Positions 2,083-20,719 are shown, numbered from the stretch's first letter. The stretch: 22,554 nucleotides of DNA from a virus (IMGVR_UViG_3300023210_000016), one strand, 5' to 3'. The notes: generated by a model not told the origin, from the sequence alone. A program made the numbers and translations.

Positions 2083-2691
2083 TTATTTATCCGGCACAAC
2101 GTATCCAAAGTGGGCGATTTCGTCTGGAAACGTGTCTTGAATGAACTGTATATATGAGTCAGTATAGTACTCTTTTGGGTTGTATTTCTGAACATGAGAT
2201 GCCCGTGTTAGTGGTTCGAAGCATCCTGTGTGTTCTTGTATTTGTTTGAAGCCTTGGTCTAGATTGTCGAGGTCAATAACTATATCTACATTTCGGATGT
2301 ATTCCATTTGGGAAATGGTATGTTTCTCATTGCGTTGCCTGTTGGTTTGGATGTAATTCTCTATCCCGTTGTCCCATTCAAACATATCATCGTCGTATTG
2401 TTTTGTCAACCTCGCAATGTCTGCATCGTTTTGTGCCCGTGATAACATTTTCTTCAATCGTTCGGGACGATGTGCAAACAGGTACATGCTAACCATACGT
2501 TCGTAGGTATTTCTGGTTACGGTAAATGATATGTTGTATGCAAAATGTGGGATTAATGGTTTCATCTCGTCCAACGATAAATGCCCTACAAATTTTGGAG
2601 AACCGATGTGCGTTTTGAACCAATTGCCTATGCTACCACCAGCGGCTTTGGGTATATGAACGAATGCCGTGCCGTTACAGAGGAACGACAT
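2083..2691 (-). CDS. Sulfotransferase family protein (Sulfotransfer_2-like)
   Basis: 5'-PSB motif FVHIPKAAGGSI and 3'-PB motif RNTYERMVSMY. Confidence 0.8.
   Translation of the reverse strand: MSFLCNGTAFVHIPKAAGGSIGNWFKTHIGSPKFVGHLSLDEMKPLIPHFAYNISFTVTRNTYERMVSMYLFAHRPERLKKMLSRAQNDADIARLTKQYDDDMFEWDNGIENYIQTNRQRNEKHTISQMEYIRNVDIVIDLDNLDQGFKQIQEHTGCFEPLTRASHVQKYNPKEYYTDSYIQFIQDTFPDEIAHFGYVVPDK
2084..2091 (-). promoter_or_regulatory. T4 late-type promoter box GATAAATA upstream of cca
   Basis: Matches NATAAATA; overlaps the sulfotransferase stop, ~35 nt upstream of the cca start. Confidence 0.5.
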
Positions 2692-3443
2692 TAGTCCAAA
2701 AACTTTTTGGCCAAGTTCGCTTTTTGGGCAATAATCTTCTTAAAATCAGCTACGGCTTTTTCTGGATCATCCATCATGCCATCCGGAAACCAATTTCTGG
2801 ATTGTGATTTAATGTGATCATAGTATTGGTCAGGGTTCTGATAATTCCCATCATGAACATCCTTCAATAGCCCAGACCATATTGTCCCATCCATGCTGTG
2901 ATCCATGGGGAATTGGTTTGGCTTCACGCCAGATAAATCTGCGATGATTTCTTTTTCTTGTTCTGCTGTGTTGCGTATCTCAGATATAGGGAGTTTATCC
3001 CCGCGTCGATCTCTGATGTGGGAGATTCTGTTGCTCAGTACATCCAATGCGTGGCTTGCCAAAGCGGGAACATATGCAACAACGTTATCGAGGGTGATGT
3101 TATATTTAAGTAACATCGGACTGCGTGAATGATCGCCCGTTGGTGTGAAAATCAAGCCGGGCGAGTTATTTGCCATATTGAATCCTATATCAAATGAAGT
3201 GGTCGTGGATGCAATTTTATCTTCTCGCATATCCGATTGGTTTTGCAAACTCAATGCTCGGTATACGGCGATGTTGCCACCGTGTAATTGGCGAACAAGG
3301 TTAACGGACATCTCTTTCAGGTATGGTTTCTTTTGAACTATCTCCGCGATTCGTCCTTTACCAGTTTCGATGTCAGCCAAGATTGCCTTGGCTTCGGGGA
3401 GACTGATGCGGGATTTCGCTTCTAAGAGTTCATGTATCTTCAT
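2691..3443 (-). CDS. Putative R-S-E clade ADP-ribosyltransferase with MKIHELLE leader
   Basis: Motifs in ART order: VYRAL (R), ASTTTS (STS), EQEKEII (ExE). Confidence 0.6.
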   Translation of the reverse strand: MKIHELLEAKSRISLPEAKAILADIETGKGRIAEIVQKKPYLKEMSVNLVRQLHGGNIAVYRALSLQNQSDMREDKIASTTTSFDIGFNMANNSPGLIFTPTGDHSRSPMLLKYNITLDNVVAYVPALASHALDVLSNRISHIRDRRGDKLPISEIRNTAEQEKEIIADLSGVKPNQFPMDHSMDGTIWSGLLKDVHDGNYQNPDQYYDHIKSQSRNWFPDGMMDDPEKAVADFKKIIAQKANLAKKFLD

Positions 3444-3805
3444 TATTCTTTACTCAGGAATTTTATATATTTAGCTGGAATTGGCTCTTGAGTGGACCAC
3501 TCCCAACTGCTGTCTCCGGTGAACGTAGGGGCCGCAGGGAAGTTGTTTGGCAATGTGATAGACAATGCTGCTAGATCGACACCTTCGCCGTACTTTTCTT
3601 CGTATTCTTCACCAAGCCAATTCATCAACGCATTGTTCATATCATCGATGGATGGGAACATGAAAATCCCATGATCGCCCATTACTTCGCTGCGGGTGCC
3701 AGATTTTGGAATAAGCCCTTGGGTCAGAATAGATTTAACATTATCATACAAGGTAACATGATAGAACGTTCGGGAAACATTATCCGTAAGTTCATGTATC
3801 TTCAC
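3443..3805 (-). CDS. Small ART-fold protein (H-x-T type, Tpt1/DarT-like NAD-binding domain) with MKIHEL leader
   Basis: FYHVT...SILTQGLIP...GIFMF...WEW...IPAKYI pattern; GTG start overlapping the upstream TGA. Confidence 0.6.
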   Translation of the reverse strand: MKIHELTDNVSRTFYHVTLYDNVKSILTQGLIPKSGTRSEVMGDHGIFMFPSIDDMNNALMNWLGEEYEEKYGEGVDLAALSITLPNNFPAAPTFTGDSSWEWSTQEPIPAKYIKFLSKE

Positions 3806-4275
3806 GCCCAGTCCTTGTCAAAGGTTTCCGTGTATTCATTCGTGACCACCAACTTAACATCAGGAGTCGGTAACTCGGTTAAACTCAGATCACATGCCTC
3901 GTAACTCAAGGTAACGTGTGGAGTATAGCTATCAAAATCCCATGATAAATCGTGGGCATCCATGCCATGTTCGTGACGTTTATTAAGCTCCGGACATTCA
4001 AAAGATAACACAAGTACGTTGTTTTCTTCTCCGAACAGTTCCAACTTATATGTACTTGGATCAATTTCCACGTTATGTTCGGCTGATTCCCAATCGAACT
4101 GTTTGTCTTTGCTGTACAGCACAGTTACGTGCATGTCGTCGGCGGGTGTCGGTTTATCGATCCCGTGCCGGTGTGTCCAGTCTTGTAGACTTTTGATGCT
4201 GTCTTCGCTAATATGTGCGCCTACAAACATTCCGGGCTTCTCTGCCCGTTCTTCTAGTAATTCTGATATCATCAT
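3802..4275 (-). CDS. acb1: Anti-CBASS nuclease Acb1 (T4 gp57B-like 2H phosphodiesterase)
   Basis: Two HxT motifs (MHVTVLYS, YTPHVTLSY), N-terminal GMFVGA, VLVL, C-terminal EY.E...DWA; colinear with T4 57B as I recall it. Confidence 0.85.
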   Translation of the reverse strand: MMISELLEERAEKPGMFVGAHISEDSIKSLQDWTHRHGIDKPTPADDMHVTVLYSKDKQFDWESAEHNVEIDPSTYKLELFGEENNVLVLSFECPELNKRHEHGMDAHDLSWDFDSYTPHVTLSYEACDLSLTELPTPDVKLVVTNEYTETFDKDWA

Positions 4276-4691
4276 CCTATTGCTCTCTTCACCATTGGGT
4301 GATCTAAGTCGCGTCTGTCTCTACAGCCGATGTATAGCGGGGCCGCGAATCCATCCGCCCAATGTTCGTCCATATCCCATTCGTCGGCATGAACCTCTTC
4401 TGATGTGGAAAATAAAAACAACTCGCCTACTGCGGTTCTGCCGCTTAAAAATGCACTCACATCATCATGGTGCGCCAAATATGAATTCCAAACATACAAC
4501 TTGTTCTCCCATATAAGACCCCTGAGTTCTGATTCTAGCCCAACCATTATTCTATCTAAGTCTTTTCGCGAAGGGTTCACATACAAAATGGTATCATCGA
4601 CACTCCATTGATCTGGTGGCATCGGTATACGTTTAAGTTCCGACAACGTTGCCTCACTAATCATATCTAGTTTTTTCAACAATACCTTCAT
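4272..4691 (-). CDS. Hypothetical protein
   Basis: 139-aa ORF coupled by ATGA overlap in the same operon; N-terminus contains MISEA. Confidence 0.7.
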   Translation of the reverse strand: MKVLLKKLDMISEATLSELKRIPMPPDQWSVDDTILYVNPSRKDLDRIMVGLESELRGLIWENKLYVWNSYLAHHDDVSAFLSGRTAVGELFLFSTSEEVHADEWDMDEHWADGFAAPLYIGCRDRRDLDHPMVKRAIG

Positions 4692-4718
4692 TGTACCATA
4701 ACCATCCGTTGATGTCTA

Positions 4719-5163: not shown

Positions 5164-5787
5164 TTAACGCCTTGCTCGTGTTGCTGGCTTCGTAGATTCT
5201 TTATGATCATTGAATGAAACACCTGCCTGTTCTCTTAGTTTGTCTGTGAATTTGTTTCTTGGAGCATACCGATTGACATTCATACCAGCCGCCATTTGAA
5301 GTGATTCCATTGCAACATCAACGCCATCTTCGATGCCATTCATGTCCTTGTCGCCATAGTATTCACGATACTCGCGTGGGGAGTTCGGGATTTCGTTCTC
5401 CAGATTTTCCTGTGTAACAGGCAGTCGTCTGTCGTTTTTGTAATACATGAATTCCCAGTCCTTATGATCGATCTCTGTTAGTGCTTCCATATCTACGAGG
5501 ATTTCGATGATCTTCGCAGGTGTCCATGTTCGGCGTTTGATTTCAACAAACACCAGATATTTTCCGTCTTGGAATTCACCTGTGCTGACATCAGCGTCCA
5601 GAACGTCGTTGAATCCCTTCTCAAGGAACCCCATCAAATCCATTGCTGGATTTTTGCCGGTCACCAAGAAGCTAACGACTACGATTTCATCATCATCACC
5701 CATTTTACTGCGAAACTGATCAATATGTAGCTCGGGACGAACCAATCGGTTCAGATCGCCCTCGTTAAGACCCTCAAATAAATTCAT
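5164..5787 (-). CDS. Conserved-looking hypothetical large-phage protein (possible head/core protein)
   Basis: Long acidic ORF; start MNLFEGLNEG at 5787 overlaps the upstream stop by 14 nt. Confidence 0.65.
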   Translation of the reverse strand: MNLFEGLNEGDLNRLVRPELHIDQFRSKMGDDDEIVVVSFLVTGKNPAMDLMGFLEKGFNDVLDADVSTGEFQDGKYLVFVEIKRRTWTPAKIIEILVDMEALTEIDHKDWEFMYYKNDRRLPVTQENLENEIPNSPREYREYYGDKDMNGIEDGVDVAMESLQMAAGMNVNRYAPRNKFTDKLREQAGVSFNDHKESTKPATRARR

Positions 5788-6337
5788 CTTCTTCTGCTCC
5801 TGTTCCAACATCTTCCATTTCTTCATCTGTTTCAGATGTATCCACGTTTGCTTGATCCATCATACCTTCATCAAATGCGCTTTCGACCTGTTGTAGATCG
5901 ACTTCTTTGCCCTCGATTTCGAGTGAACCTTCTTTAATGTCACTGACAAGCTCTCGTGGCATGATGATATTCACGAACCAAACGGGTACTTCCTTGATTT
6001 CTGGCTTATGTGAGCCATCATCGCGGTAGTCTGCATCTGTTTTGATTGTTACGGGGAAGCGTAATACGCCTTTTTTCCAGAACATTTTGCACCCTAATTC
6101 GAGCAATCGTTTGCCACCATTTGGGTCAGGCATGACTGCTACAGGCCACATAAACTTGCATGATACGAAGTATTTCTCGTACAATGGGCCTTCCACCAGT
6201 TCACCTTGTTTCCAGTGTTTGAATGAGTACACGTCCTGTTCATCGAGCACACGCTCAAAGTCCATGAGCGTTGTCAATGCACTGTTGGTCAAGTACAGCA
6301 TTTTCGTATTTTTTACAGCATCGTCAAGATTGAGCAT
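5774..6337 (-). CDS. Hypothetical large-phage protein with acidic tail
   Basis: 187-aa ORF with SD AAGGA and a CATAAATA box upstream. Confidence 0.75.
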   Translation of the reverse strand: MLNLDDAVKNTKMLYLTNSALTTLMDFERVLDEQDVYSFKHWKQGELVEGPLYEKYFVSCKFMWPVAVMPDPNGGKRLLELGCKMFWKKGVLRFPVTIKTDADYRDDGSHKPEIKEVPVWFVNIIMPRELVSDIKEGSLEIEGKEVDLQQVESAFDEGMMDQANVDTSETDEEMEDVGTGAEEDEFI

Positions 6338-6354
6338 ATTAGTTCCTTACATGG

Positions 6355-6362
6355 TATTTATG
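6355..6362 (-). promoter_or_regulatory. Late-type promoter CATAAATA
   Basis: Intergenic, 18 nt upstream of ATG 6337. Confidence 0.6.
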
Positions 6363-6414
6363 ATGGAACAACGATTACTGACACAATCTGGAATGTTCTG
6401 AGTAGGCGATCTTA

Positions 6415-6422
6415 TATTTATC
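6415..6422 (-). promoter_or_regulatory. Late-type promoter GATAAATA inside an inverted repeat
   Basis: Intergenic match; lies between TTCTGAG (6396-6402) and CTCAGAA (6425-6431). Confidence 0.4.
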
Positions 6423-6468
6423 CTCTCAGAATCCTAAAAGTAACGAGCTATTATGATGGTGGGGGGAA

Positions 6469-6476
6469 AATAAATA
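6469..6476 (+). promoter_or_regulatory. Late-type promoter AATAAATA for phoH
   Basis: Intergenic, upstream of SD AAGGAG (6502-6507) and ATG 6512. Confidence 0.5.
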
Positions 6477-6511
6477 TTGGTGTGAACAACAAGTTCACTA
6501 CAAGGAGTAAA

Positions 6512-7240
6512 ATGTCTAGAAGTAAAAAGGCAAAAGGCTTTAAATACAACAATGAGCCAGTAGTTCAACTAGATAACTACATCACTAAAAAGAAACGTGT
6601 GGACATGATCCCACGAAACATCAATCAAGAAGAGTACGTAGAATTGCTACTCGATCCAAGTAAATTAATGGTTTTTGCGGTAGGTCCAGCGGGCACTGGT
6701 AAAACGATGCTAGCCGTATTAGCAGCCATCAAAGCTTACAAAGAAGGATCGATACAACGAATCGTGCTTACAAGACCTGCAGTGGGCGTTGATGACGAGA
6801 AGCATGGATTTTTACCGGGTGACCTAAATCAGAAAATGGAACCTTGGACTAAGCCGTTGTTTGATGTCATCAACGAATACTACACCCCAAAGGATGTGGC
6901 AAACATGATCGAAAATGATATCATTGAAATTGCACCGTTAGCTATGATGCGCGGCAGAACGTTCAAGAATTGTTTCATCATTGCTGACGAAATGCAGAAC
7001 GCCACTCCAAATCAAATGAAGATGATTCTAACTCGATTAGGAGAAAATTCTGAAATGGTGATTACGGGTGATGTCAATCAAACAGATAGACAAGCGGCCC
7101 AAAATGGATTACTTGACTTTGGAAAGCTTCTTAGCAGATTCGGAGAAGCGGAATACATCGACTCAGTTGAATTTAACCGAGACGATATAGAACGTCATCC
7201 TGCTGTCAAAGAAGTGTTGGATATCTACGGCGAGGACTAG
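6512..7240 (+). CDS. phoH: PhoH-like ATPase
   Basis: GPAGTGKT Walker A, RGRTF, DEMQN, GDVNQTD, RHPAV motifs; ATG 6512 follows AAGGAG. Confidence 0.92.
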   Translation: MSRSKKAKGFKYNNEPVVQLDNYITKKKRVDMIPRNINQEEYVELLLDPSKLMVFAVGPAGTGKTMLAVLAAIKAYKEGSIQRIVLTRPAVGVDDEKHGFLPGDLNQKMEPWTKPLFDVINEYYTPKDVANMIENDIIEIAPLAMMRGRTFKNCFIIADEMQNATPNQMKMILTRLGENSEMVITGDVNQTDRQAAQNGLLDFGKLLSRFGEAEYIDSVEFNRDDIERHPAVKEVLDIYGED

Positions 7241-7548
7241 TCTGTTCCATTGTATGGCGGTACATTCGCCGTAGCTGGAGCATTCAGAGACTTCACCATT
7301 GCGTCAAGCATGCGTAGCATTGCGTTGAACTCAGCGTTGATGTCTTTTTGACCATTGGTCGGGACGCAAATAGCTTCCACGCCACTTCCCTGTGCCAAAA
7401 CCGTATGCTTTGCTTCCACGCCACTTCCCTGTGCCAAAACCGTATGCTTTGCTTCCACGCACTTGTTCATGGCATTTTTACCATCATATTCTGTGCGAAT
7501 TTCAGCACCGCTCATGAGTGTGATAATTAACATTGCTTTCATAATCAT
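7237..7548 (-). CDS. Small hypothetical protein with hydrophobic N-terminus and an in-frame 13-aa duplication
   Basis: Start MIMKAMLIITL at 7548 after AGGA; convergent stop shares CTAG with phoH. Confidence 0.6.
   Translation of the reverse strand: MIMKAMLIITLMSGAEIRTEYDGKNAMNKCVEAKHTVLAQGSGVEAKHTVLAQGSGVEAICVPTNGQKDINAEFNAMLRMLDAMVKSLNAPATANVPPYNGTD
7373..7460. repeat. Perfect 39-bp tandem duplication plus a 10-bp third partial copy
   Basis: 7373-7411 equals 7412-7450; GCTTCCACGC recurs at 7373, 7412 and 7451. Confidence 0.95.
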
Positions 7549-7549
7549 G

Positions 7550-7936
7550 TCAGTCTTCCTTCTTTGTTTGTGCGTTACGTGTTCGGGTGTCCATATCACT
7601 CAGCCATTCAACCATTTTCTCTTTGCAGATGGCTTCATTCGCCATCGCTGCTCTAAGGTTGTCGTGGTGCATTTTTAGTTCCTCGGGCTGATGTCCTCGA
7701 ATGCCCTCCATCCGAAGATACAAGTTGTATATACGATTGTCAGAACGTATCCACAACCATATGAACTGATTGAACACAGATGCTTTGTCTGATAACAATT
7801 CTACGGTATAGATATCATTGTATTTGAACTTGGTCTCAACAACAAACCGTGCTTCATCATAGGAGTCACTGACCTCGGACGGATCATATGTCCATTGTTT
7901 GCCAAGCTTCTCCGAGAAATAGTCAAGGTCTTTCAT
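7550..7936 (-). CDS. Hypothetical protein
   Basis: ORF fills the operon gap; start MKDLDY at 7936, just after the upstream stop. Confidence 0.65.
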   Translation of the reverse strand: MKDLDYFSEKLGKQWTYDPSEVSDSYDEARFVVETKFKYNDIYTVELLSDKASVFNQFIWLWIRSDNRIYNLYLRMEGIRGHQPEELKMHHDNLRAAMANEAICKEKMVEWLSDMDTRTRNAQTKKED

Positions 7937-7938
7937 CT

Positions 7939-8337
7939 TCAATCCCATAAGTTCCGGTAGTACTTAGCGAACAAATCCAATCCTTCTTGAAGACGTTCGT
8001 TGTATACGTCATAGTCTGCACTGGACGGTAATGGTGCAGTATCGTCTTCTATGGTTTGTTGAAAACTCCAAATCATTTTAGCCAATGCCTGATCCCACAG
8101 TTCTGCCCCTATGTCATTGTCGTCATCTAATTCCATGAACTCGAAATGATACTGTTCATACCTATCAAAATGATCCATAAACACAGAAGGGTAACCGTTG
8201 CTCGTTGATCGTAATAACTCCAAACATGGTACTATGATTCGAGCGAACGTATCGTCAAAACTCCAGACATCCCATCGGTCAATTTGAATGAGATTTTTTC
8301 CATTCTTGCGTCCCGGCGCACTAAGGTGTATTTTCAT
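7939..8337 (-). CDS. Conserved phage hypothetical protein (D.WS.D.T.A.II ... LF.KYY..LWD family)
   Basis: Recognisable pattern DVWSFDDTFARII, KMIWSF, EGLDLFAKYYRNLWD. Confidence 0.7.
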   Translation of the reverse strand: MKIHLSAPGRKNGKNLIQIDRWDVWSFDDTFARIIVPCLELLRSTSNGYPSVFMDHFDRYEQYHFEFMELDDDNDIGAELWDQALAKMIWSFQQTIEDDTAPLPSSADYDVYNERLQEGLDLFAKYYRNLWD

Positions 8338-8932
8338 CAGTGATTATACCGTATATCTCTTCCCACTTGGTCACAACAGTCGCTGGGCCATTGTATTCGA
8401 TACTATGCCCATGTTCCATCAGAAGGCTTCTAAGGCCCATCTCGTGCCCTAGATCGGCATTCTCAACCTTGTCCTCGATCCACCATAAACCAGAATCCCT
8501 GTATTCTTCAAGCGCAGAGGTTTTCTCCGCTGCAGTATCGAGATACTTGAACTTAGTGAATGCGGTGTCACCAAACAATTTCTTCAAGTTGATTTCACGA
8601 AGGGCTTGGGCATTTGGGTCTTTGCTCAATGATGTAATCACATGAAAGACATAGCCCTGTTCCTCATGCAGTTTCTTGACATATTGGATGCTATCCCTCA
8701 ATGATGGAAGGAAACCAATAGCTGCTGATTCATTGAATACGGTGACAAGCTGTCGAATCGCCAAATCCGGCAAATTAAACCGCATAGCCATGCTGTAATG
8801 ATAATGGGCATCTTCAATCTCTTCATACCCATGATCAACCATCCAGATAGCGAAAGCGAACTCCCAATTACACATCACCCCATCACAATCGGATAAAATA
8901 ATTTTATCGGTGCTTTTGTATTTTTTGTTCAT
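8321..8932 (-). CDS. HAD-superfamily phosphatase / 5'(3')-deoxyribonucleotidase-like (T4 gp30.2-like)
   Basis: Motif I ILSDCDGV and motif IV WIEDKVEN. Confidence 0.8.
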   Translation of the reverse strand: MNKKYKSTDKIILSDCDGVMCNWEFAFAIWMVDHGYEEIEDAHYHYSMAMRFNLPDLAIRQLVTVFNESAAIGFLPSLRDSIQYVKKLHEEQGYVFHVITSLSKDPNAQALREINLKKLFGDTAFTKFKYLDTAAEKTSALEEYRDSGLWWIEDKVENADLGHEMGLRSLLMEHGHSIEYNGPATVVTKWEEIYGIITDENTP

Positions 8933-8938
8933 TTAGGT

Positions 8939-8967
8939 ATGATACACCTAATTTAGATCAATGTCAA
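8939..8967 (-). promoter_or_regulatory. Sigma70-type promoter TTGACA-N17-TATCAT (probably leaderless mRNA)
   Basis: -35 at 8967-8962, -10 at 8944-8939; ATG 7 nt downstream of the -10 box, no SD. Confidence 0.75.
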
Positions 8968-8974
8968 CTATTAT

Positions 8975-9041
8975 CATAAATACAATGTAGGTCACGAACG
9001 CGAATTCCACCTACTCTAACGTCTTGGAGGACATCAGCATG
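8975..9041 (+). promoter_or_regulatory. Conserved structured leader copy A (late box, stem-loop, SD)
   Basis: CATAAATA, GTAGGT/ACCTAC stem, GGAGG; near-identical to the reverse complement of 20087-20157. Confidence 0.8.
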
Positions 9042-9638
9042 CAATCTATTTATATACCATACACCTATCTTATTGGATGGTCATCATTGAAGGTATTTTA
9101 CTATGGAGTAAGATATGCGAAAAATTGCAATCCTTCCGATCTATGGGTAACCTATTTCACATCATCTAAATATGTTGCCGCTTTTCGTGAAATTCACGGC
9201 GAACCTGATATAATACAGATACGAAAACAATTTCCCGACAACAAAGCACGAGCGATATTATGGGAAGATAATGTAATTATGAAACTCCGATTACATAGGC
9301 GTTTCGATTTTCTTAACAAAAACCGCTCAAGGGGATTTGATTTAGATTACGCCACCATTTGCAAGAATAATAGAGCACCAGATCGATGCAAAGCGGTATC
9401 AAATGGGTTAACCGGATTGCCAAAAACAGCAGAACATAAATTAGCGTTATCTAAAGTAGTCCACCCAAGGGGATGGACCCACCGAGAAAATACCAAGAAT
9501 CTAATGTCCACCAAAGCACTCGCGTATAATCCGGGGTTCACATGTCAACATACATGCCCGTTATGTAGTAAACAAGGACAAAAGGCCAACATTGTACGAC
9601 ATCATGGATTACATGGTGAAAAATGCCGATGGTATTAG
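9039..9638 (+). CDS. Free-standing homing endonuclease (divergent GIY-YIG, Seg/Mob-like; NUMOD3-like segment and C-terminal Zn finger)
   Basis: YTYLIGW...YYGVRY...YFTSS pattern, KTAEHKLALSK, CPLC...H...C; ATG 9039 after GGAGG. Confidence 0.75.
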   Translation: MQSIYIPYTYLIGWSSLKVFYYGVRYAKNCNPSDLWVTYFTSSKYVAAFREIHGEPDIIQIRKQFPDNKARAILWEDNVIMKLRLHRRFDFLNKNRSRGFDLDYATICKNNRAPDRCKAVSNGLTGLPKTAEHKLALSKVVHPRGWTHRENTKNLMSTKALAYNPGFTCQHTCPLCSKQGQKANIVRHHGLHGEKCRWY

Positions 9639-9648
9639 TTTGTCGTCT

Positions 9649-10530: not shown

Positions 10531-10554
10531 CCATTTCTTTGTTGATCTTTGTAT

Positions 10555-10582
10555 AGTATACCAGAAATCTACTAGCTGTCAA
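10555..10582 (-). promoter_or_regulatory. Sigma70-type promoter TTGACA-N16-TATACT with extended -10 (TGn)
   Basis: -35 at 10582-10577, -10 at 10560-10555. Confidence 0.7.
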
Positions 10583-10860: not shown

Positions 10861-10870
10861 GTGTTTTCCT

Positions 10871-12645: not shown

Positions 12646-12839
12646 TCTTTGTCTTTGCGTATTGTACTCTTCCAGTTTTTCAATGATGGAACAAGTAGGT
12701 GATTGATGTCATGAGTTTCTATAGTAACAGAATATCCATGTGATTGCAAGTACCAATCTGGTGCGGTGCCATAACCGACCTCACGATCCCAAGAACGTTG
12801 GGTGCCTTTGCCCTCGCGCTTGACTACGTGTTTAGGCAT
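12642..12839 (-). CDS. Small hypothetical protein
   Basis: 65-aa ORF filling the operon gap with ATGA coupling downstream. Confidence 0.5.
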   Translation of the reverse strand: MPKHVVKREGKGTQRSWDREVGYGTAPDWYLQSHGYSVTIETHDINHLLVPSLKNWKSTIRKDKE

Positions 12840-13122
12840 CTGTTAATTCCTTGATCCGTTTATAGGCTTCTTGGAGTTGTTCTTGAAGTTCACGAACGTT
12901 ATTCTTTAGTATAGAGATGTGTTGAGCGTCTGTCAAGGGGTCAACGCGCTTGAACTGTTTAAGTTGCTCGTCCGTGAGGATAGGATTGTCAGGATCATCG
13001 GCGGCAGCAGCTTCAATTTCTTCGTCGGTCCTGTTCATCAATTCTTCCAATCGTTCGTCTGATATCATAAATCCTGATGATCCGTCCATTCGCTTATCCT
13101 TTAATCTGCTACGCCAATCCAA
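12832..13122 (-). CDS. Small protein with antitoxin-like (BrnA / HTH-XRE N-terminal) segment and C-terminal coiled coil
   Basis: TDEEIEAAAADDPDNPILTDEQLKQFKRV followed by NNVRELQEQLQEAYKRIKEL. Confidence 0.55.
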   Translation of the reverse strand: MDWRSRLKDKRMDGSSGFMISDERLEELMNRTDEEIEAAAADDPDNPILTDEQLKQFKRVDPLTDAQHISILKNNVRELQEQLQEAYKRIKELTDA

Positions 13123-13499
13123 TTGTTGACAGGTTTATCCGCGCCATCCCAAGTGCCCATGACACCATCTGGATCAACACGATTGATAATGACTTCCCCA
13201 TCAGGGTCTTCAATAGTTACAGATCGAGACCACCGACCATGTTCGATCAGTACCCACTGGCCGACATCATAGTCATCGACATTTTCCGCAACAGCATATA
13301 CTTGTGCCCAACGTGGGCGAATGGCTGCACCATCGAATTTGTCTGCCATGATAATCAAGCCAGCTTTCGACCGGCGCTCTTCTGCAAATGATTCATGGAT
13401 ACCTTTCACGAGAATAACATCTCGCAATGGTTTCAATGAGTCTACCTTAACTGTGCCGGAAATACCGGCCTTCGCCATTAAGTCTCTACCTGTAGCCAT
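13101..13499 (-). CDS. groES: GroES/Cpn10-like co-chaperonin
   Basis: LKPLRDVILVK, SKAGLII mobile loop, AQVYAV, VGQWVL. Confidence 0.8.
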   Translation of the reverse strand: MATGRDLMAKAGISGTVKVDSLKPLRDVILVKGIHESFAEERRSKAGLIIMADKFDGAAIRPRWAQVYAVAENVDDYDVGQWVLIEHGRWSRSVTIEDPDGEVIINRVDPDGVMGTWDGADKPVNNWIGVAD

Positions 13500-13850
13500 T
13501 TAGTCTTCCTCTGCTATTTTCTTGGCAAGATCGCCATCTGATAATGTTTCACCCATTTCAAAATCTGGATCATCCAGATCAATCTCTTCACGAACAGTCG
13601 GGACGATCTCTGCTTGTGAGATATCAGCCTCTGCCTTCTGTGGAATGTGTCCATCTGTTGGTACATTCTGGTGAATTTGTGAGTAATGCTCTTTCATGAT
13701 TTCATTACGTGTCTTCACGATTTCACCATTCGGGCCGAGTTTATCACCACGAGCATTCACACCCATGTTACCCACCGCAATGGTTTCTTCGTTTTGTAGA
13801 CGAAGTTTTTCGATATCGATCATTCGTCCTTGTGCTGTTCTATGTGCCAT
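13500..13850 (-). CDS. Conserved-looking hypothetical large-phage protein
   Basis: RTAQGRMIDIEKL...AVGNMGVNARGDKLGPNG pattern; SD AAGGA. Confidence 0.75.
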   Translation of the reverse strand: MAHRTAQGRMIDIEKLRLQNEETIAVGNMGVNARGDKLGPNGEIVKTRNEIMKEHYSQIHQNVPTDGHIPQKAEADISQAEIVPTVREEIDLDDPDFEMGETLSDGDLAKKIAEED

Positions 13851-14565
13851 TTGTTTTCCTTTGTTTTGCGTTTTGTGATTTTGTCTTTCTTATTTGTCGT
13901 TTTTGTTCTTCGGTATAGGTCTTGCCCCGCATAGGGGAAGGTACTCCATACATCGGATTCTTATCTCCAAGTTTACTAGCACTTATTTGTTGTTTAGTGT
14001 GATCTGATAATACTTTTCCCGTGTTGCCTTTGCTTATTTTATTTTTGTGCTCGGTTGATAATGTTTTGCCCGTATGTGCCGCCGACATTTTCGATCTGGT
14101 TTCATTTGAAGCTTGGTACCCTCGTAAGCTATTGGCTCGCTTTTCTATTACTTCTTTAGTATGTAAATGACTAGTATCCCGCATATGACCCTTATTTGCT
14201 TCTGAAATCTTATGTTTGTGTTCTGTGGTGAGAGTAAATCCGCTACGAGAAACTTTGCCACCATTCGCCTTGCTTATTTTATTTCGGGTTTCATGCGTTA
14301 CTATTCTTCCAGAATTACCTTCTCCACCATCTGTTAAATTCCTCAATATGCCGGTACCTTGATCCTTTCTGCCGTGTTGTTCAATCAATGTCTTTTCCAG
14401 TCTAAAAGATTCTTCTTCGGTTAATCCATCTTCCACAATTATAATTCTAGTCTCGTCTATAGGTTTATGTACGGTTCTTGATGCAGACCATGCTCTGTTT
14501 CCTTTTCCTTTGCCTATATAATATGGCGTTCCATCCTCTCTGACATACTGATATACATAATACAA
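13840..14565 (-). CDS. GIY-YIG homing endonuclease with NUMOD3 repeats
   Basis: YYVYQY...PYYIGKG...R, E.LI, N.TDGGEG; several (S/T)xEH/TK.KIS.A.KG repeats; TTG start after AAGGAG. Confidence 0.85.
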   Translation of the reverse strand: MYYVYQYVREDGTPYYIGKGKGNRAWSASRTVHKPIDETRIIIVEDGLTEEESFRLEKTLIEQHGRKDQGTGILRNLTDGGEGNSGRIVTHETRNKISKANGGKVSRSGFTLTTEHKHKISEANKGHMRDTSHLHTKEVIEKRANSLRGYQASNETRSKMSAAHTGKTLSTEHKNKISKGNTGKVLSDHTKQQISASKLGDKNPMYGVPSPMRGKTYTEEQKRQIRKTKSQNAKQRKTNGT

Positions 14566-14595
14566 TGCTATTCTCCTTAATACATTGTATTTATA
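14559..14595 (-). promoter_or_regulatory. Late promoter TATAAATA plus a hairpin occluding the RBS and start codon
   Basis: TATAAATA at 14595-14588; AATACAATG/CATTGTATT 9-bp stem plus TATT/AATA, with AAGGAG in the loop. Confidence 0.8.
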
Positions 14596-14605
14596 TTCTG
14601 TACCT

Positions 14606-15133
14606 CTATCTCAAAAATTCTTTGATATCCAATCCATAAAAAAGCGAATCGATTCGATGCACGTTCATCAAATACAATACATATGATGCAACCGAACTGC
14701 CACGACCTACGCCCATGACCAGATTGCTGTCTTGTACTGTATCTACAAAGTATTTAAGGAATTGCAACAACGGAAACATATTTCTGTCTTGAAACAACAT
14801 CAACTCTTCGCCAACACGCTGTAACTCGGCATCGGTTTTACATAAGCCGATCACGTATTCAGCAATATCAAGGTCTTTGTATTCCTGTGGCATATACCAG
14901 TTGGATTGGTTGTCTGAGTCAAATGCTTCAACTGTTGCATCATCGTAGTCTTCGGTTGATTTGAGCAACAAGTGGCCATAATCGGAGTACAGTCGATTAA
15001 CTGAGTCGTTAAACAACCGAACCTCGTTCTCATCACTAATGCTCACCTCGTCCAAGAGAATGTCATTCTGATATAAACCAGACATAACGTCTTGAGTGGT
15101 GTAGTGAACTTTTCCTAGCTTGTCAAATTCCAT
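14606..15133 (-). CDS. Stand-alone DNA polymerase III alpha (DnaE)-like fragment
   Basis: RV.EEL...LL.FL...VD....GVGRGSSVASYVLYL..V.RID.L.Y.L...FL matches the DnaE GRGS region; ends before the PDID catalytic motif. Confidence 0.75.
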   Translation of the reverse strand: MEFDKLGKVHYTTQDVMSGLYQNDILLDEVSISDENEVRLFNDSVNRLYSDYGHLLLKSTEDYDDATVEAFDSDNQSNWYMPQEYKDLDIAEYVIGLCKTDAELQRVGEELMLFQDRNMFPLLQFLKYFVDTVQDSNLVMGVGRGSSVASYVLYLMNVHRIDSLFYGLDIKEFLR

Positions 15134-15141
15134 TACTAAAT

Positions 15142-15170
15142 ATTATAGTACACTATATAAGGAAATGCAA
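15142..15170 (-). promoter_or_regulatory. Sigma70-type promoter TTGCAT-N17-TATAAT (near-leaderless) containing palindrome TATAGT-AC-ACTATA
   Basis: -35 at 15170-15165, -10 at 15147-15142, ATG at 15133. Confidence 0.65.
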
Positions 15171-16225
15171 TGAAAATCTCAATTATCGGTGCGGGAAACA
15201 TAGGACTAACCATCTATGAAATGTTATCAGAGAAATCAACGAGAATGGTTCCAAGGGACACCTCTCCGTCACATGATGTACAGATAGGGGATATGAACGA
15301 TACGGATGATCGAGTACAGAAACTTGATGCAACCAAGAAATCAGAACTTAAGAAGTTCTTGAAAGGGAGTGATGCTGTGATATCAGCCGCTCCTTTTTTC
15401 TTGAATAAACTGATCATTGATGTCGCAATTGAGCTACAAATCGCATACTTTGATCTCACTGAAGACACCGATATCACACAGTACGCTAAATTGAATGCCA
15501 AGGATGCAGTTGTTATGCCCCAATGTGGTCTTGCACCCGGCGCGATAAACATCATCGCGAATGGTCTCGCAGAGCAATTCAAAGATTTATGGTCAATCAA
15601 AATGAAGGTTGGCGCTCTACCTGTGATGGCAGAGAACGAGATGAAATACTACCGTACATGGTCAACTGCTGGTGTAGTGAATGAATATTGCAACCCGTGC
15701 GATGTGATCATTGATGGCAATCCGTGCCAAATACCGGCAATGGGTAATCTGGATTCTGTGATTATCGACGGTGATTTGTACGAATCTTTCAGTACTTCTG
15801 GTGGAGTTGGAACACTTACTGAAACATATAAAGGCAAGGTTCGGCATATGTCGTATGAAACGTTACGGTATCCGGGCCATTGTGATAAGATGAAATTTCT
15901 ATTGAATGATCTGAGGTTCCGTGACAATCGAGAAGCCTTGGTAGAAATATTGGACATGCATGTTCCCACCACAAAAGATGATGTTGTCGTATTGCATGCG
16001 TCTGTGGTTGGTGGCGCACCAACTGTTCCTCATGGATATCGTCCATACACTAGAAAGATTTATGCCGAGAACGGAATGACCGCAATTCAACGGACTACCG
16101 CATCGGGAGTATGTGCAATTATTGAGTTGTTCCACAAGGGCGATTTGCCTACAGGTTTTGTTCGCCAAGAACAAGTCTCAATGGATATGTTCTTGGCTAC
16201 TAAACATGGACAAATCTTTAAGTAG
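15170..16225 (+). CDS. Saccharopine dehydrogenase / lysine 6-dehydrogenase family oxidoreductase
   Basis: IIGAGNIG, YFDLTED, PQCGLAPG, VGALP, TWS..G..NEY, TSGG.GTL, TLRYPGH, TTA.G; SD AAGGA. Confidence 0.85.
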   Translation: MKISIIGAGNIGLTIYEMLSEKSTRMVPRDTSPSHDVQIGDMNDTDDRVQKLDATKKSELKKFLKGSDAVISAAPFFLNKLIIDVAIELQIAYFDLTEDTDITQYAKLNAKDAVVMPQCGLAPGAINIIANGLAEQFKDLWSIKMKVGALPVMAENEMKYYRTWSTAGVVNEYCNPCDVIIDGNPCQIPAMGNLDSVIIDGDLYESFSTSGGVGTLTETYKGKVRHMSYETLRYPGHCDKMKFLLNDLRFRDNREALVEILDMHVPTTKDDVVVLHASVVGGAPTVPHGYRPYTRKIYAENGMTAIQRTTASGVCAIIELFHKGDLPTGFVRQEQVSMDMFLATKHGQIFK

Positions 16226-16844
16226 GTTTTTTGCCGCCATCAATGATACGTGGTTTGAATAAGTTCTTGACGACCGAGACTGCGGTTTCACCGTCCCACG
16301 TAAATCCTAGCTTATTCCATCCGAATGCTTCTTGATATGAGTTGATTTCGTCTTCGGTGGCATCTACAAAATCATCAGCAATTGTAGCTGCGTCATTGGT
16401 AAACCACCAAGGCGTCACCGGATCATCTGAGTCTAATAATCCATAGCTATCGTCGGACCCGAATATGTATTCGATGTCATCGCCATGATGGCTGCTTAGA
16501 CTTAATGCATCCACCGTCATTTTGCCTTCAAGTATTACATTCAACTTACAATGCAACGCCATGGCAATAATTTGGTCATATGGTTCTTTGGGAAGAAATG
16601 CTATATTAGTCGCTACTGCTCCCCCGATGATATCGTCAATCACAGGATTGTTAATACATGCGAATAGAGTGTTATCGATTGTTTTTTCCATGAAATACTG
16701 CAATCTTTCGAATGCCATATTCTGTTCTAATTTGTCGTCGGTGTGTACTGTGATCGCGAATACTGCTTTATACTTGTTCGGTAACATTACCTCGTCTACT
16801 AAAATTATACCAAGAAACTCGTTACGCCATGTTATTGTTGTCAT
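16218..16844 (-). CDS. Hypothetical large-phage protein
   Basis: 208-aa ORF, convergent overlap with the dehydrogenase gene. Confidence 0.75.
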   Translation of the reverse strand: MTTITWRNEFLGIILVDEVMLPNKYKAVFAITVHTDDKLEQNMAFERLQYFMEKTIDNTLFACINNPVIDDIIGGAVATNIAFLPKEPYDQIIAMALHCKLNVILEGKMTVDALSLSSHHGDDIEYIFGSDDSYGLLDSDDPVTPWWFTNDAATIADDFVDATEDEINSYQEAFGWNKLGFTWDGETAVSVVKNLFKPRIIDGGKKPT

Positions 16845-17102
16845 TTATGATCCGATGTTGATTATATCATCAAACTCGCCATCGCTATCTTCATCTGCGT
16901 CGGCTAGAATTTGAGCATATTCTTTCTGTTGACGTTCGGTAAGTTCAACAGTATATTGATTGATAACGACTTGCATTTGATCCAGTAAGCCAATAGTCAT
17001 TCCCATCTGTCTGGCCGATGCCATCTTTCGATGAAGATCGGACAGTTTCTTAACAATGTCTTTGGTCTCAAAATCTGCGAGATTGTTGATCAATGGATGC
17101 AT
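16845..17102 (-). CDS. Small helical hypothetical protein
   Basis: 85-aa ORF coupled by TAATG. Confidence 0.7.
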   Translation of the reverse strand: MHPLINNLADFETKDIVKKLSDLHRKMASARQMGMTIGLLDQMQVVINQYTVELTERQQKEYAQILADADEDSDGEFDDIINIGS

Positions 17103-17413
17103 TAGAATGCTCCAAGTTTGGTGCTGCCCCCAGCTTTATCGGAATACACGTGAGTGATATATCCATCCATTGGGGTCTCTTTAAGCGTGGCCATGAACTC
17201 GTCTAGTTCATCCTTGTTTGCATTATCCCACAGGAATTGCCAAACTGGTTCCAGTGCCTGATGCTTTTTCTCATTAGCTGCCATCGAGATAAACCCACCA
17301 AATCGGGCCATCCCAAGATGTTTGTACATTGCAGATTGTGTCACCCTGTGAATGAAAATATGCTTGTTGTGGTCTTCGATGGTGTCGGCTTCAAATAACA
17401 ATCGTAGTTTCAT
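17102..17413 (-). CDS. Hypothetical protein with MKLRLLFE leader
   Basis: 103-aa ORF coupled by TAATG on both sides. Confidence 0.7.
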   Translation of the reverse strand: MKLRLLFEADTIEDHNKHIFIHRVTQSAMYKHLGMARFGGFISMAANEKKHQALEPVWQFLWDNANKDELDEFMATLKETPMDGYITHVYSDKAGGSTKLGAF

Positions 17414-17826
17414 TAGATGTCTCCTTCTTCTCTTTCTTCGCTACGTGATGCATCAAACTCACCACCGGGATAGCGTGATTCAAGTTTGTCCACATTAGCT
17501 GTGATGATTTCATTAGGATCGACATTCAATGCCCGACACGCTTGTGCCCAATACCAAATAACATCACCTAGTTCTTTCTTGAGATGAACAATAGTTTCTT
17601 CATCGTACTCTTTGCCTTGAAAGACAATCTTCTTGATGATCTCCGCAAATTCACCAGCTTCTCCAGCCATGCCAATACCGGCGGTCAGAATTCGGGCACA
17701 ATCCATTTCGGATGCTTTGTACAATGTTTCCAAGCGGGTGATTAGAGAGTAAGTATCGCTCGACTCTTCGCTGGTCACGCCTTCGACAAAATGTACGTAT
17801 TTTCTTAAATCTACTTCGGTGGTCAT
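17413..17826 (-). CDS. mazG: MazG-like NTP pyrophosphohydrolase
   Basis: GMAGEAGEFAEIIKK, KELGDVIWY, NV.KL.SRYPGG; SD GAGGA. Confidence 0.9.
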   Translation of the reverse strand: MTTEVDLRKYVHFVEGVTSEESSDTYSLITRLETLYKASEMDCARILTAGIGMAGEAGEFAEIIKKIVFQGKEYDEETIVHLKKELGDVIWYWAQACRALNVDPNEIITANVDKLESRYPGGEFDASRSEEREEGDI

Positions 17827-17881: not shown

Positions 17882-17883
17882 GT

Positions 17884-18711
17884 TTATTTAACGATTTGTG
17901 GCGTAACATTGATGGCTATTGGTGGATCACAAGGTTCCATGGTAGCGGTTTTGATTACTTCATTGGAATGGAATGGCTTGAACCCTTGCGACCGATCCAA
18001 ACTCCATGTAATATGATTTGTTCCACCGTCTGGAACACGCTTTGTTGATCCATCGATTTCTACGATCAATGCTTCTAATCCTTTTGTGTTCACGCGCCCG
18101 ATCACATTAACCGTGCGTGGTTGTTCTGGAACACCCAATGCGACTTTCATTGAGTACGTAATGTGATGTCCGATCCATTCAGGATATTGTGGTGGGTATT
18201 TCTTAGCAAGAGCATCGCGTGATGGTTTATCAAGGACGTATGCAATATAGCCCGAGTACCCTTCTTTAATGAGTTTTTTAGATATGTCTTTTAACCAGTC
18301 GTCACGACTTTTATTCATGGTCATTGGGTTTCCAAAATCACTAACATTAAAGACATCAACGATATCATTAACGGATACGTCACTCTGTGATTTCATCGCT
18401 TTGCCTTGTCCAAACATAAGATTTGGATCATTAGATGGGTCTAACTTCCATAGGTCAGATGTTTTCACGCGAATGATAGATGTGTCGTCCTTGAAATTGA
18501 ATTGCATTTTTTGTGCCCAATTAACCGCATCGACTGGATGTTCGAATGCAAACAACCCAGCATCGGTGTTATATCGTTCGCCATCTCGGCGTACCCAATT
18601 GCTTGGTTGAAATTGCATCAATCCCTGTTTCATGATGCTTGGTACATTTTTAGTGAGCGTGGCATGATACAAATAGTTCGATGATTCACCCAAGAGTTCT
18701 TTAATCTTCAT
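17884..18711 (-). CDS. ART-fold / 2H phosphoesterase fusion protein with MKIKELLGE leader
   Basis: N-terminal YLYHAT...SIMKQGL...LFAF; C-terminal HHITY and HITWS HxT pair; start 18711 coupled by TAATG. Confidence 0.7.
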   Translation of the reverse strand: MKIKELLGESSNYLYHATLTKNVPSIMKQGLMQFQPSNWVRRDGERYNTDAGLFAFEHPVDAVNWAQKMQFNFKDDTSIIRVKTSDLWKLDPSNDPNLMFGQGKAMKSQSDVSVNDIVDVFNVSDFGNPMTMNKSRDDWLKDISKKLIKEGYSGYIAYVLDKPSRDALAKKYPPQYPEWIGHHITYSMKVALGVPEQPRTVNVIGRVNTKGLEALIVEIDGSTKRVPDGGTNHITWSLDRSQGFKPFHSNEVIKTATMEPCDPPIAINVTPQIVK

Positions 18712-19442
18712 TAGATAGCTTGTAGTACGAGTTTCTTCCAGATAACGGTTGAACCATCGAATGTTCCTGTGCATACATAAAAGTTGGTTGCGTCCATTGC
18801 TGTCATTCCGGCAAGATCGCCAGCGACACCAACCGCAGTGGCTGTTTTTTGTTCTACGCGGGTACGAGCACGTGACATATCTTCGACTGTAATCGTGGTA
18901 CCAGCGTCATGAGATGTGAATTCTAGCACAAATGTACCAGTGGTGTCAAATGTAATTGCTGCAGTTGTTGAGTCAAATCCCATCAAATCGACAATACCGA
19001 GAGATACTGCTGATGGGAATGTAACTGTATGGGCAACGTTGGCTACGGTAACTTCGACACGAACAGTACCTAACTCGCCAGCGACTGGAAGATTAGAAAA
19101 TGCTAATGTACTAGATGCTGACATGGTATATGTCTGATATGCACCCAAGCTGTAATCAATTGTTACGGTTCCGGATGTTGTTCCCAGAGCCACACGAGTT
19201 TCGCTCATGTCACGGGTAACACCAGCAAATAGGCTTGAACCACCCATGTCGTTGTCAATTGATGTGCCGGTTAGGGCTGATTTAAGCAGAACTTTTGCTT
19301 GAAGGTCTTCGATCTCGGTCTTTGCGAACGTGAAGTTGTTCTTGGATGCAGTGAAGTTATCTCTGAACCCCTGACTGTCATTATCAGTGCCCGCAACAGG
19401 ATATGCTGCGTCAATGTTGCTACTATTAATATTTGATGCCAT
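18711..19442 (-). CDS. Putative virion structural (tail/baseplate-associated) protein
   Basis: MASNI....YPVAG.DNDSQGFRDNF N-terminus, Thr/Gly beta-rich body, fibre-like C-terminus G..GD..G....D..NFYVC...WKK; late promoter upstream. Confidence 0.65.
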   Translation of the reverse strand: MASNINSSNIDAAYPVAGTDNDSQGFRDNFTASKNNFTFAKTEIEDLQAKVLLKSALTGTSIDNDMGGSSLFAGVTRDMSETRVALGTTSGTVTIDYSLGAYQTYTMSASSTLAFSNLPVAGELGTVRVEVTVANVAHTVTFPSAVSLGIVDLMGFDSTTAAITFDTTGTFVLEFTSHDAGTTITVEDMSRARTRVEQKTATAVGVAGDLAGMTAMDATNFYVCTGTFDGSTVIWKKLVLQAI

Positions 19443-19444
19443 AA

Positions 19445-20089
19445 TTAGGTATCTCCATTCTTGTAGTTATTTATACAAACATCACGATGTCTCATGAAGT
19501 TTGCGCCGACATCTGCGAATTCTCGCGCACAGATATCGCATGTTAGTTTTGGTTTGTTTTTAAGTGTTTCGCTGATAAGTTTGCGTCTATGTGTTGGTAC
19601 ATTTTTTCCGCGCAGGGACAGGGATAAATTGTTGCGATGCTCGAAAGATTTGATCATTCCGGTTCTAGTTTCGCTCATTTTTGTTCTGGTCTCAACGGTA
19701 TGCGCGATGCCCATGTGCGAATCGGATAACTTATTGCAGTGTCCATCAGACATTTTTATTCCTTTGTTCCATGGCGATAATCCCATTGTACCTTCCCCGC
19801 CATAGGTCATATTATATCCTCCGTCAGTTGAATAATGGGTACCATACTGTTCTATGAAATATTTCTCCATAACATGCAAGGTATGATCAAGATGATTGCT
19901 CTGATATATGGCTTCAATTGTAAAATTCTCAATCCCGTGCTTTCTCATTGCGTTATATAGATAGTATGACGATTTTCTTGCTTTTGCCTTATGCATTCTG
20001 AAACGATGTTCAATTGATTTGCTTGTAAAACCTACGTACATTTTATCATTGATTTGGTTGGTGATTTTGTATATGCTATAAATATTCAT
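19445..20089 (-). CDS. GIY-YIG homing endonuclease with NUMOD3 repeats and C-terminal Zn finger
   Basis: IYSIYKITN...MYVGFT...RF..H, E.YFI, GYNMT.GGEG, PWNKG, NUMOD3-like repeats, CDIC. Confidence 0.88.
   Translation of the reverse strand: MNIYSIYKITNQINDKMYVGFTSKSIEHRFRMHKAKARKSSYYLYNAMRKHGIENFTIEAIYQSNHLDHTLHVMEKYFIEQYGTHYSTDGGYNMTYGGEGTMGLSPWNKGIKMSDGHCNKLSDSHMGIAHTVETRTKMSETRTGMIKSFEHRNNLSLSLRGKNVPTHRRKLISETLKNKPKLTCDICAREFADVGANFMRHRDVCINNYKNGDT
19468..19475 (-). promoter_or_regulatory. Perfect T4 late promoter TATAAATA inside the 3' end of the endonuclease gene
   Basis: Exact consensus, followed by GGAG and ATG 19442. Confidence 0.7.
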
Positions 20090-20157
20090 GCTGATTGTCC
20101 TCCCAGACGTTAGATTAGGTGGATGCTAGTAACATCGCGACCTACCTTGTATTTATG
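20087..20157 (-). promoter_or_regulatory. Conserved structured leader copy B (late box, stem-loop, SD)
   Basis: Reverse complement reads CATAAATACAAGGTAGGTCGCGATGTTACTAGCATCCACCTAATCTAACGTCTGGGAGGACAATCAGCATG; matches 8975-9041. Confidence 0.8.
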
Positions 20158-20719
20158 CTGCTTTTTCGATGTTTATAAGTTTGACAGGCCCCTGAACTGT
20201 GATTTCTCGTTCTTCGGAAAATTCTGGATTTGAATTTTGTATCAAGGTTTCTTGCCAATCGATATTACGAACATCTACTGTTGCAGAGAACAACCACCTA
20301 ACATCGCCTTGTTTCTTGTTACCCCAATGCGGTGTTGCTGAAGATTTCGACCAAGCCCAATATCGATCACCCTGAAGTGATGGTTTTTTGTTTTCCGGAG
20401 CATATATCGCTCTCCATATTGGGATTCTGGTGCCTTGCATTTGGGACGTTATAGTACTGATTGATCTATCGATTTCGTACATCAAATCATTTTTAAGCCA
20501 TGCAACGAAATCATCATCATAACGTACAAGTTCGGAAAATCGAAGGGCATCATATGGCGTGTTTCCGGTTTCGCGTTGATATGTTCTGGTCAATTCCCGC
20601 CAGATCAAAGTGTCTGGAGCACTTGTGATATCTCGGAAAATCGATTCGATGACTTCATCTTTGTCTATATCGGAAAGAAACGATTGTTGCTGATTTTCAA
20701 GAAGTTCAGATATAAGCAT
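20153..20719 (-). CDS. Putative R-S-E clade ADP-ribosyltransferase with MLISELLE leader
   Basis: IWRAI (R), YWAWSKSSA (S motif), EEREITV (ExE). Confidence 0.55.
   Translation of the reverse strand: MLISELLENQQQSFLSDIDKDEVIESIFRDITSAPDTLIWRELTRTYQRETGNTPYDALRFSELVRYDDDFVAWLKNDLMYEIDRSISTITSQMQGTRIPIWRAIYAPENKKPSLQGDRYWAWSKSSATPHWGNKKQGDVRWLFSATVDVRNIDWQETLIQNSNPEFSEEREITVQGPVKLINIEKAA

Follow-up and report, generated by a model that had tools for sequence, protein, structure and literature searches.

That a short N-terminal peptide can target proteins to a phage capsid has been known from T4 since the 1990s. We describe here a leader peptide of similar form, shared by five genes in a 22,554-nt stretch of an uncultured marine jumbo phage (IMGVR_UViG_3300023210_000016; the whole stretch is called the window below), in which the minus strand carries nearly all genes. 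In T4, the prohead protease gp21 cuts after Glu in the sequence (L/I)-x-E, and Alt, an ADP-ribosyltransferase (ART), loses six residues through a cut at ITE-6 (PMC5694885). The gp24 protein loses a 10-residue propeptide, the propeptides of gp24 and the internal proteins being 10–20 residues long, and these propeptides and capsid-targeting sequences (CTSs) tie their proteins to the prohead core (PMC5694885, PMC9026906, PMC3012670). The internal proteins that T-even phages carry make up a varied, defence-countering group, held together by the CTS alone (PMC5694885, PMC9026906, PMC3012670). The N-termini in the T4 record are MAKINELLRE for gp24, MELITELFDE for Alt, MKTYQEFIAE for two internal-protein genes (the ipII/ipIII CTS) and MEGLIEAIKS for gp67, another head protein that gp21 cuts; IPI bears the CTS as well. 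Packaging and injection have been predicted for polyvalent proteins too (Iyer et al. 2017, PMC5512222). Our literature search found no description of such leaders in the phage group to which the window belongs.

An initial annotation, made from the sequence alone, had read the leader as a packaging code analogous to that of T4. The five N-termini that it listed are all present on the minus strand and have the form M-x-I-x-E-L-[LT]. The genes, named below by their start coordinates, lie at 2691..3443 (250 aa, MKIHELLEA, leader codons 3417–3443), 3443..3805 (120 aa, MKIHELTDN, leader 3779–3805), 3802..4275 (157 aa, MMISELLEE, leader 4249–4275, an Acb1), 17884..18711 (275 aa in two domains, MKIKELLGE, leader 18685–18711) and 20153..20719 (188 aa, MLISELLEN, leader 20693–20719). 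The 3805 gene begins with a GTG that overlaps the upstream stop. The 18711 start is an internal ATG of a longer open reading frame (ORF) and is the start used by gene calls on several metagenome contigs. Two further leader genes stand just left of the window, one for an ART-PolyVal protein that begins (V)QLFELIHK, read as MQLFELI, and one for an 806-aa protein that begins MFLSELYKN. I-x-E, one form of the (L/I)-x-E cleavage motif, occupies residues 3–5 in 5/5 of the leaders in the window, and L-x-E ends at residue 8 or 9 in 4/5.

The window sequence turns up again in several marine samples, on metagenome contigs as long as 103 kb, and contig walking gave a composite of the window's phage of 66 kb with 94 genes; the coverage was later raised to ~120 genes. 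The motif is far commoner at N-termini than internally, an excess over chance that bears out the initial annotation. In the 66-kb composite, [IL]xEL[LIFYT] is found at residues 3–7 of 7/94 N-termini, against five internal occurrences in ~20,800 residues (binomial P ~6e-16), and the narrower IxEL[LT] is found five times at N-termini and twice internally. After an internal Met, x[IL]xEL occurs in 0/496 cases and the looser x[IL]xE in 2/496. The P values are optimistic because the motif was defined after the data had been seen, but the excess is still large. As had been observed for the window, none of the replication or metabolic genes among the ~120 genes of the phage carries the motif. The codons of the common leader residues vary synonymously between genes (ATA/ATT, CTC/TTA/CTT, TCA/TCT) and the upstream DNA is unrelated; since the codons differ in this way, the conservation of the leader is at the level of the protein. 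The exception is the adjacent pair 3443/3805, alike at 16/17 bases after the start codon. The bearers had been described as otherwise unrelated. This holds for the other pairs, which match only in residues 1–12, and fails for 3805 and 18711, which are homologous past the leader (BLASTP E 6e-7 over residues 1–56).

The analogy with T4 holds, and it is tighter than first put, since the leader is nearer to the N-termini of gp24 (MAKINELLRE) and Alt (MELITE|LFDE) than to the internal-protein CTS with which it had been compared (MKTYQEFIAE). In T4 as here, a short N-terminal peptide with a hydrophobic-x-Glu, two hydrophobic residues and a second Glu stands on otherwise unrelated proteins whose genes adjoin structural genes, and one T4 bearer, Alt, is packaged and injected, which compares with the ART-type cargo predicted here. 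In contrast to T4, the register of the leader is one residue shorter, with the second Glu one position closer. Its cargo (Acb1, Tpt1/DarT-like ART folds) is of types without known packaging. Moreover, the window's phage is a distant jumbo relative of the PA5oct/Atu_ph07 group rather than a member of the Straboviridae, and its leader is known from sequence alone. A likeness is also proposed with the phiKZ-like giant phages (phiKZ, 201phi2-1, SPN3US), whose heads are loaded with many proteins trimmed after Glu by a gp21-related protease. Those phages form a separate group with S/A/G-x-E sites and propeptides mostly longer than 100 residues, and we know of no common 8-residue leader in them.

We consider it fairly probable, by analogy with T4, that the leader is a capsid-targeting, protease-cut N-terminal propeptide on injected effectors. 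Because the leader matches the N-terminal peptides of protease-cut head proteins in T4 and in relatives of the window's phage (see below), the tagged enzymes are probably loaded into the capsid and injected. In the mechanism that we propose, they would be made late, along with the structural proteins. The peptide M-x-[IL]-x-E-L-Φ-(E), where Φ is hydrophobic, would dock them to the prohead scaffolding core and direct them into the prohead, where a protease of the gp21 family would cut after Glu-5 (I-x-E) and/or Glu-8/9 (L-x-E). After trimming, the enzymes would remain inside the head, among the packed DNA, and be carried into the next host cell along with the genome. The steps of docking, cutting, packaging and injection are ones that we infer from the T4 analogy. 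The tagged set would comprise Acb1, two ART-fold proteins and two possible ARTs, with the ART-PolyVal and 806-aa proteins outside the window. Once injected, these enzymes could act before any phage gene expression; Acb1 would degrade the signals of the cyclic oligonucleotide-based defence CBASS, and the ART-fold enzymes would have host protein or nucleic acid as the substrate that they modify.

The T4-type principle itself is already established; the clade, the consensus peptide and the cargo are new. If the proposal is true, the rule M-x-[IL]-x-E-Φ-Φ at residue 1 would allow the injected effector set to be read from the genomes of uncultured jumbo phages, in a clade that is very widespread in the sea and in soil. 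The delivery, ready-made with the DNA, of an anti-CBASS Acb1 and several ART-fold enzymes would change the assumed timing of counter-defence, and the leader would become a candidate for tagging foreign proteins so that they are loaded into large capsids other than those of the T4 family.

The evidence from head proteins comes from relatives. The clamp loader of the window's phage has 46% identity to that of Pseudomonas jumbo phage PA5oct and its kin, with Atu_ph07, Phosso and Xoo-sp13 more distant. The PA5oct segment 183.7–192.6 kb is syntenic with window positions 5164–17826, sharing MazG, a DNA polymerase III (Pol III) alpha fragment, a GroES-like gene, the clamp loader, PhoH and two virion structural proteins. 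A megablast comparison of the window with cultured phages found no near-identical one, and exact-word and protein scans of IMG/VR with the window, the 3443 and 18711 proteins and the clamp loader found no close relative. The head genes of PA5oct follow a T4-like order, namely portal, a 73-aa protein, a 270-aa protein, protease, a 368-aa protein and capsid protein. Its 73-aa protein, gp333, starts MKINDIITE and is in the published virion proteome (Lood et al. 2020), determined by electrospray ionization tandem mass spectrometry (ESI-MS/MS). So is gp135 (MHLFELFDQ), the sole PA5oct protein with the strict motif. With a relaxed motif, 8/16 checked annotated genes encode virion proteins, against 93/461 overall (20%; P 0.007), an enrichment that gives modest support.

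Eighty head modules of the clade, 787 kb in all, were taken from metagenomes by means of an alignment of five capsid proteins. The small protein encoded after the portal begins in these modules with MILRELFYFD, MKLNEFYNPE, MRLDEFYNPE, MNIMELFDQ, MFLAELYQK and similar sequences. The strict motif occurs over the 787 kb in 35 distinct ORFs, and 32/35 belong to this one small head protein family, so that the leader peptide is not a generic phage N-terminus. In the capsid proteins of the clade, the N-terminus reads MSELLESRW or MAELFESNW and a conserved AL-x-E/G comes near residue 20, and L-x-E peptides also begin the protease and the scaffold-like proteins; the portal has none. When 120 N-termini were scored with a position-specific scoring matrix built from the small head protein family alone, strict leaders took six of the first eight places, and the seventh leader came 13th. 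The other two places are taken by weaker variants of the leader, MKLRLLFEA, which scores highest of all, and MNLFEGLNE. As for the enzyme that would do the cutting, Peptidase_S77, the gp21 family, is found in PA5oct (E 7e-25) and beside the capsid gene in 66/80 head loci. Two PA5oct proteins are annotated as head maturation protease and were detected in virions (L012:629-1300 and L040:10080-10712), one of the ClpP family (Pfam E 8e-60) and one of the gp21 family.

The weaker variants that the initial annotation had added prove to be heterogeneous. MNLFEGLNE (5164..5787, minus strand, 207 aa) fits the pattern, with L-F-E at residues 3–5, and begins a homologue of the PA5oct virion structural protein gp188 (PHROG 'virion structural protein', E 7.5e-26; tblastn match at PA5oct 192187–192561). 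MKLRLLFEA (17102..17413, minus strand, 103 aa) is leader-like and has no Glu at position 5. The third, MKVLLKKLDMISEA (4272..4691, minus strand, 139 aa), has I-S-E, but only at residues 11–13, and no Pfam or PHROG family was found for its protein. A separate pair of adjacent genes, L127:16812-17636 and L127:17623-18060, shares the N-terminal motif [IL]LGKL...QIDN, and the first of the two starts MKELLGKL, which is the MKIKELLGE leader minus two residues.

The leader genes keep company with structural genes, each coming directly after one with no gap. A tightly packed block from 6337 to 2083 opens with two homologues of virion structural proteins and holds four leader genes. Its first gene (5774..6337, minus strand, 187 aa) encodes a homologue of gp189, a PA5oct protein that ESI-MS/MS found in virions. 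The 18711 gene follows a gene of 243 aa (18711..19442, minus strand) whose stop overlaps the 18711 start, and a sequence like a T4 late promoter, TATAAATA, lies at 19468–19475, 26 nt upstream of the ATG of the 243-aa gene. The 20719 gene comes directly after a fibre-like or baseplate-associated gene, of which the window holds the 3′ part (20722..22554, minus strand; 697 aa in full, Pfam He_PIG on contigs); a T4 gp9/10-like baseplate protein is encoded two genes further upstream. In the window, TATAAATA is found at four sites against 1.07 expected, with at least four in 2/100 shuffles, which is weak evidence of late transcription. In the relatives, this T4 late-promoter consensus precedes the small head protein gene by no more than 80 nt in 16/43 loci, against 0.07 sites per kb overall. 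Over the 80 head loci (L046–L125), it is found 53 times in the sense and 15 times in the antisense orientation, and it clusters immediately before the small post-portal gene, a pattern suggestive of T4-type late transcription throughout the jumbo-phage clade.

The cargo had been described as ARTs, Acb1-like and 2H enzymes. Pfam confirms the Acb1, and an ART fold is supported for 18711 and 3805, whereas 3443 and 20719 have language-model leads only and the 2H reading of the C-terminal domain of 18711 does not stand. The 4275 protein matches Pfam Acb1 PF23474 (E 2.2e-35) and is by its sequence an Acb1, a predicted anti-CBASS 2H phosphodiesterase, with the HxT motifs H49/T51 and H120/T122 invariant among homologues. 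The Pfam alignment begins at residue 15, which pairs with profile position 2, so that the leader extends Acb1 at its N-terminus. An AlphaFold2 model of the N-terminal domain of 18711 (residues ~11–150), made with an alignment, has a predicted local distance difference test score (pLDDT) above 90; the first ten residues, at ~60, are outside the fold. The top Foldseek matches of this domain are Tpt1/KptA, DarT and ART toxins (probability 1.0, E 1e-4 to Tpt1), and it has a conserved Y-H-x-T, compared with the His of the H-Y-E class of ARTs. The domain is thus predicted, from the model, to have an ART fold of the Tpt1/DarT type, and the 3805 protein is a short homologue of it. The C-terminal domain matches phrog_36523 and has two invariant HxT motifs. 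As a candidate 2H enzyme it was rejected: hhalign against the Acb1 alignment gave 3% probability, no PDB profile matched and the AlphaFold2 model was poor.

For the 3443 protein, no homologue besides itself was found among 5.8 billion proteins, and the single-sequence fold is unusable (pLDDT 36). Its nearest named Atlas clusters are all ARTs, with scores of 0.84–0.88, a language-model lead by which it is possibly an ART of the R-S-E type. The 20719 protein may be a small ART, given Atlas leads, likewise from a language model, to DRAT, Mod_ADP_RT and ADPrib_exo_Tox (0.84–0.90). In Pfam and PHROG, no family was found for most of the leader proteins, nor for the PA5oct virion proteins with leader-like starts, and PA5oct has no homologue of any leader protein of the window.

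The 18711 protein has 842 homologues, and both of its domains recur in giant polyvalent proteins beside ART-PolyVal, LPD38, RadC and Zeta-toxin domains. Packaging is predicted for the polyvalent proteins (PMC5512222) as for the proteins described here, but in the window the domains are distributed over separate small proteins of one or two domains, every one of which has a leader; they are neither strung together in a single polypeptide nor fused to MuF or portal domains. A start of the form M-x-[ILVM]-x-[ED]-Φ is found in 19/145 representative homologues of 18711 (clusters at 50% identity), against 1.5 expected, and many others start at the domain; an example of presence and absence is MKLKELNESKIEK-GYSG... 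beside M-YSGYEL.... The leader is an optional, portable add-on, outside the Acb1 Pfam domain and outside the AlphaFold2 fold. On the contig of one relative, the tag is solely on a polyvalent-type protein, and the surrounding metabolic genes are without it. A homologue with a start like the T4 CTS, P0014 (MKTF.EYLNE), had no match in cultured phages.

Readings of the leader that dispense with packaging have to be weighed. It could be nothing more than a helix or translation-start context favoured at N-termini, or simply a protease site, in which case it would sort nothing and the enzymes would be cytoplasmic during infection. MK-rich and A/T-rich starts are indeed common, the relaxed motif is also found on small early PA5oct proteins outside the virion proteome, Acb1 homologues of other phages begin in a loosely similar way but with Asp as residue 5, and in T4, Acb1 and ModA/ModB act without being packaged. 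We regard this reading as unlikely, however, since it does not account for amino-acid conservation despite synonymous codon changes, for the full motif being absent after all 496 internal Met codons and from ~110 other genes of the phage, or for the near-exclusive place of the strict motif in one head protein family over 787 kb, and it leaves unexplained why capsid, core and effector-type proteins bear the same peptide. The leader might instead be a recognition tag or degron for the phage's own chaperone-protease set (a ClpA/B-like ATPase, ClpP and DnaJ), timing the destruction or unfolding of the effectors. Genes for ClpB-like, ClpP and DnaJ proteins lie 2–9 kb from the leader cluster (the phage ClpP at L006:9414-9968), and a relative with a leader-tagged polyvalent protein encodes ClpS and ClpP. 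A cut after Glu-5 would expose Leu, and an N-terminal Leu is a classic bacterial N-degron of the N-end rule. Yet the ClpP-like protein of PA5oct is itself in the virion and annotated as a head maturation protease, so that the ClpP-like protein may belong to head assembly; the Clp tags that we know of are unlike the leader motif; and the match to the N-termini of capsid and core proteins would go unexplained. A role as degron is therefore quite improbable. It is tempting to combine the two ideas in a two-stage timer, in which the leader loads the capsid, the Glu-5 cut leaves Leu (as in Alt, MELITE|LFDE) and ClpS/ClpAP destroys the injected enzymes after they have acted, the Clp genes of the clade being part of the system; we give this elaboration a very slim chance.

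The shared starts may also be functionless by-products of duplication or recombination of gene 5′ ends, of which T4 provides an example in alt.-1/alt.-2, duplicates of the alt start. The 16/17 bases shared by the adjacent 3443 and 3805 genes suit such an origin, but it fits only this pair, as the other leaders differ synonymously and share no upstream DNA. The tag also recurs on homologues in many unrelated metagenomic phages (clusters at 50% identity), and its retention in diverged orthologues while the flanks drift is partly seen. Duplication as the whole explanation is accordingly very unlikely in our estimate. Hardly credible at all is a recognition site for a radical-SAM (S-adenosylmethionine) enzyme. 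The phage has two radical-SAM genes, one of them two genes upstream of the 20719 gene, but Pfam finds no SPASM domain and 4/5 leader genes are at least 15 kb from either radical-SAM gene.

Several points weigh against the capsid-targeting reading itself. To our knowledge, the T4 experiments proved targeting only for the IPIII CTS and not for the gp24 or Alt propeptides; a cleavage site therefore need not be an address, and the leader is short. Its spacing is E-Φ-Φ-E, where T4 has E-Φ-Φ-x-E, and in some homologues Asp replaces Glu at position 5. The head module of the window's phage and its gp21-type protease were not met in six contig walks (~70 kb added), so that this protease is inferred from relatives whose clamp loader is only ~46% identical. 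The PA5oct test with the relaxed motif had 32 candidate ORFs, of which 16 mapped to a checked annotated start, and leader-like starts absent from the reported virion proteome are those of gp103, gp256, small early proteins and, if it starts at the second Met, gp213. Finally, complete relatives hold only ~6–8 such starts per 370–450 kb. It follows that the clade does not in general carry a large cargo set and that the density of leaders in the window is unusual. The clusters of leader-like starts in Atu_ph07 are unannotated small genes.

A 200-kb contig behind L076 was considered as the source of the head locus of the window's phage and rejected, its GC content of 36% against 42.6% in the window marking it as another phage; GC content failed to single out the locus among candidates that were too many. 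[quoted passage not shown] It has no head module near it and adjoins NifU and Band_7 genes; it may represent a piece of a capsid gene or else a small paralogue.

The window's phage has an unusually wide set of auxiliary genes, including a DegP-like trypsin-PDZ protease whose start resembles a signal peptide, an IF1/eIF-1a-like protein, IscA- and NifU-like Fe-S proteins, the two radical-SAM enzymes, a CCA-adding enzyme and an ornithine/aspartate carbamoyltransferase; a saccharopine dehydrogenase is encoded on the opposite strand. Auxiliary genes were located at L001:3683-4756, L001:2482-3029, L126:8967-9812, L006:3438-4322 and, in the window, 15170–16225 (plus strand) and 769–2049 (minus strand). 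Three homing endonuclease genes are present in the window, at 13840–14565 and 19445–20089 on the minus strand and at 9024–9638 on the plus strand. At 14606–15133 (minus strand), a stand-alone 175-aa fragment of Pol III alpha (Pfam PF07733, with only 73 profile positions matched) adjoins a GIY-YIG/NUMOD3 endonuclease gene and may derive from a gene split by mobile elements. The ORF at 7237–7599 (minus strand) contains the 13-residue unit VEAKHTVLAQGSG twice, as a perfect tandem duplication, and the repeat may vary in the population, since the called length of the counterpart gene on contig L007 is 90 aa and not 120 aa.

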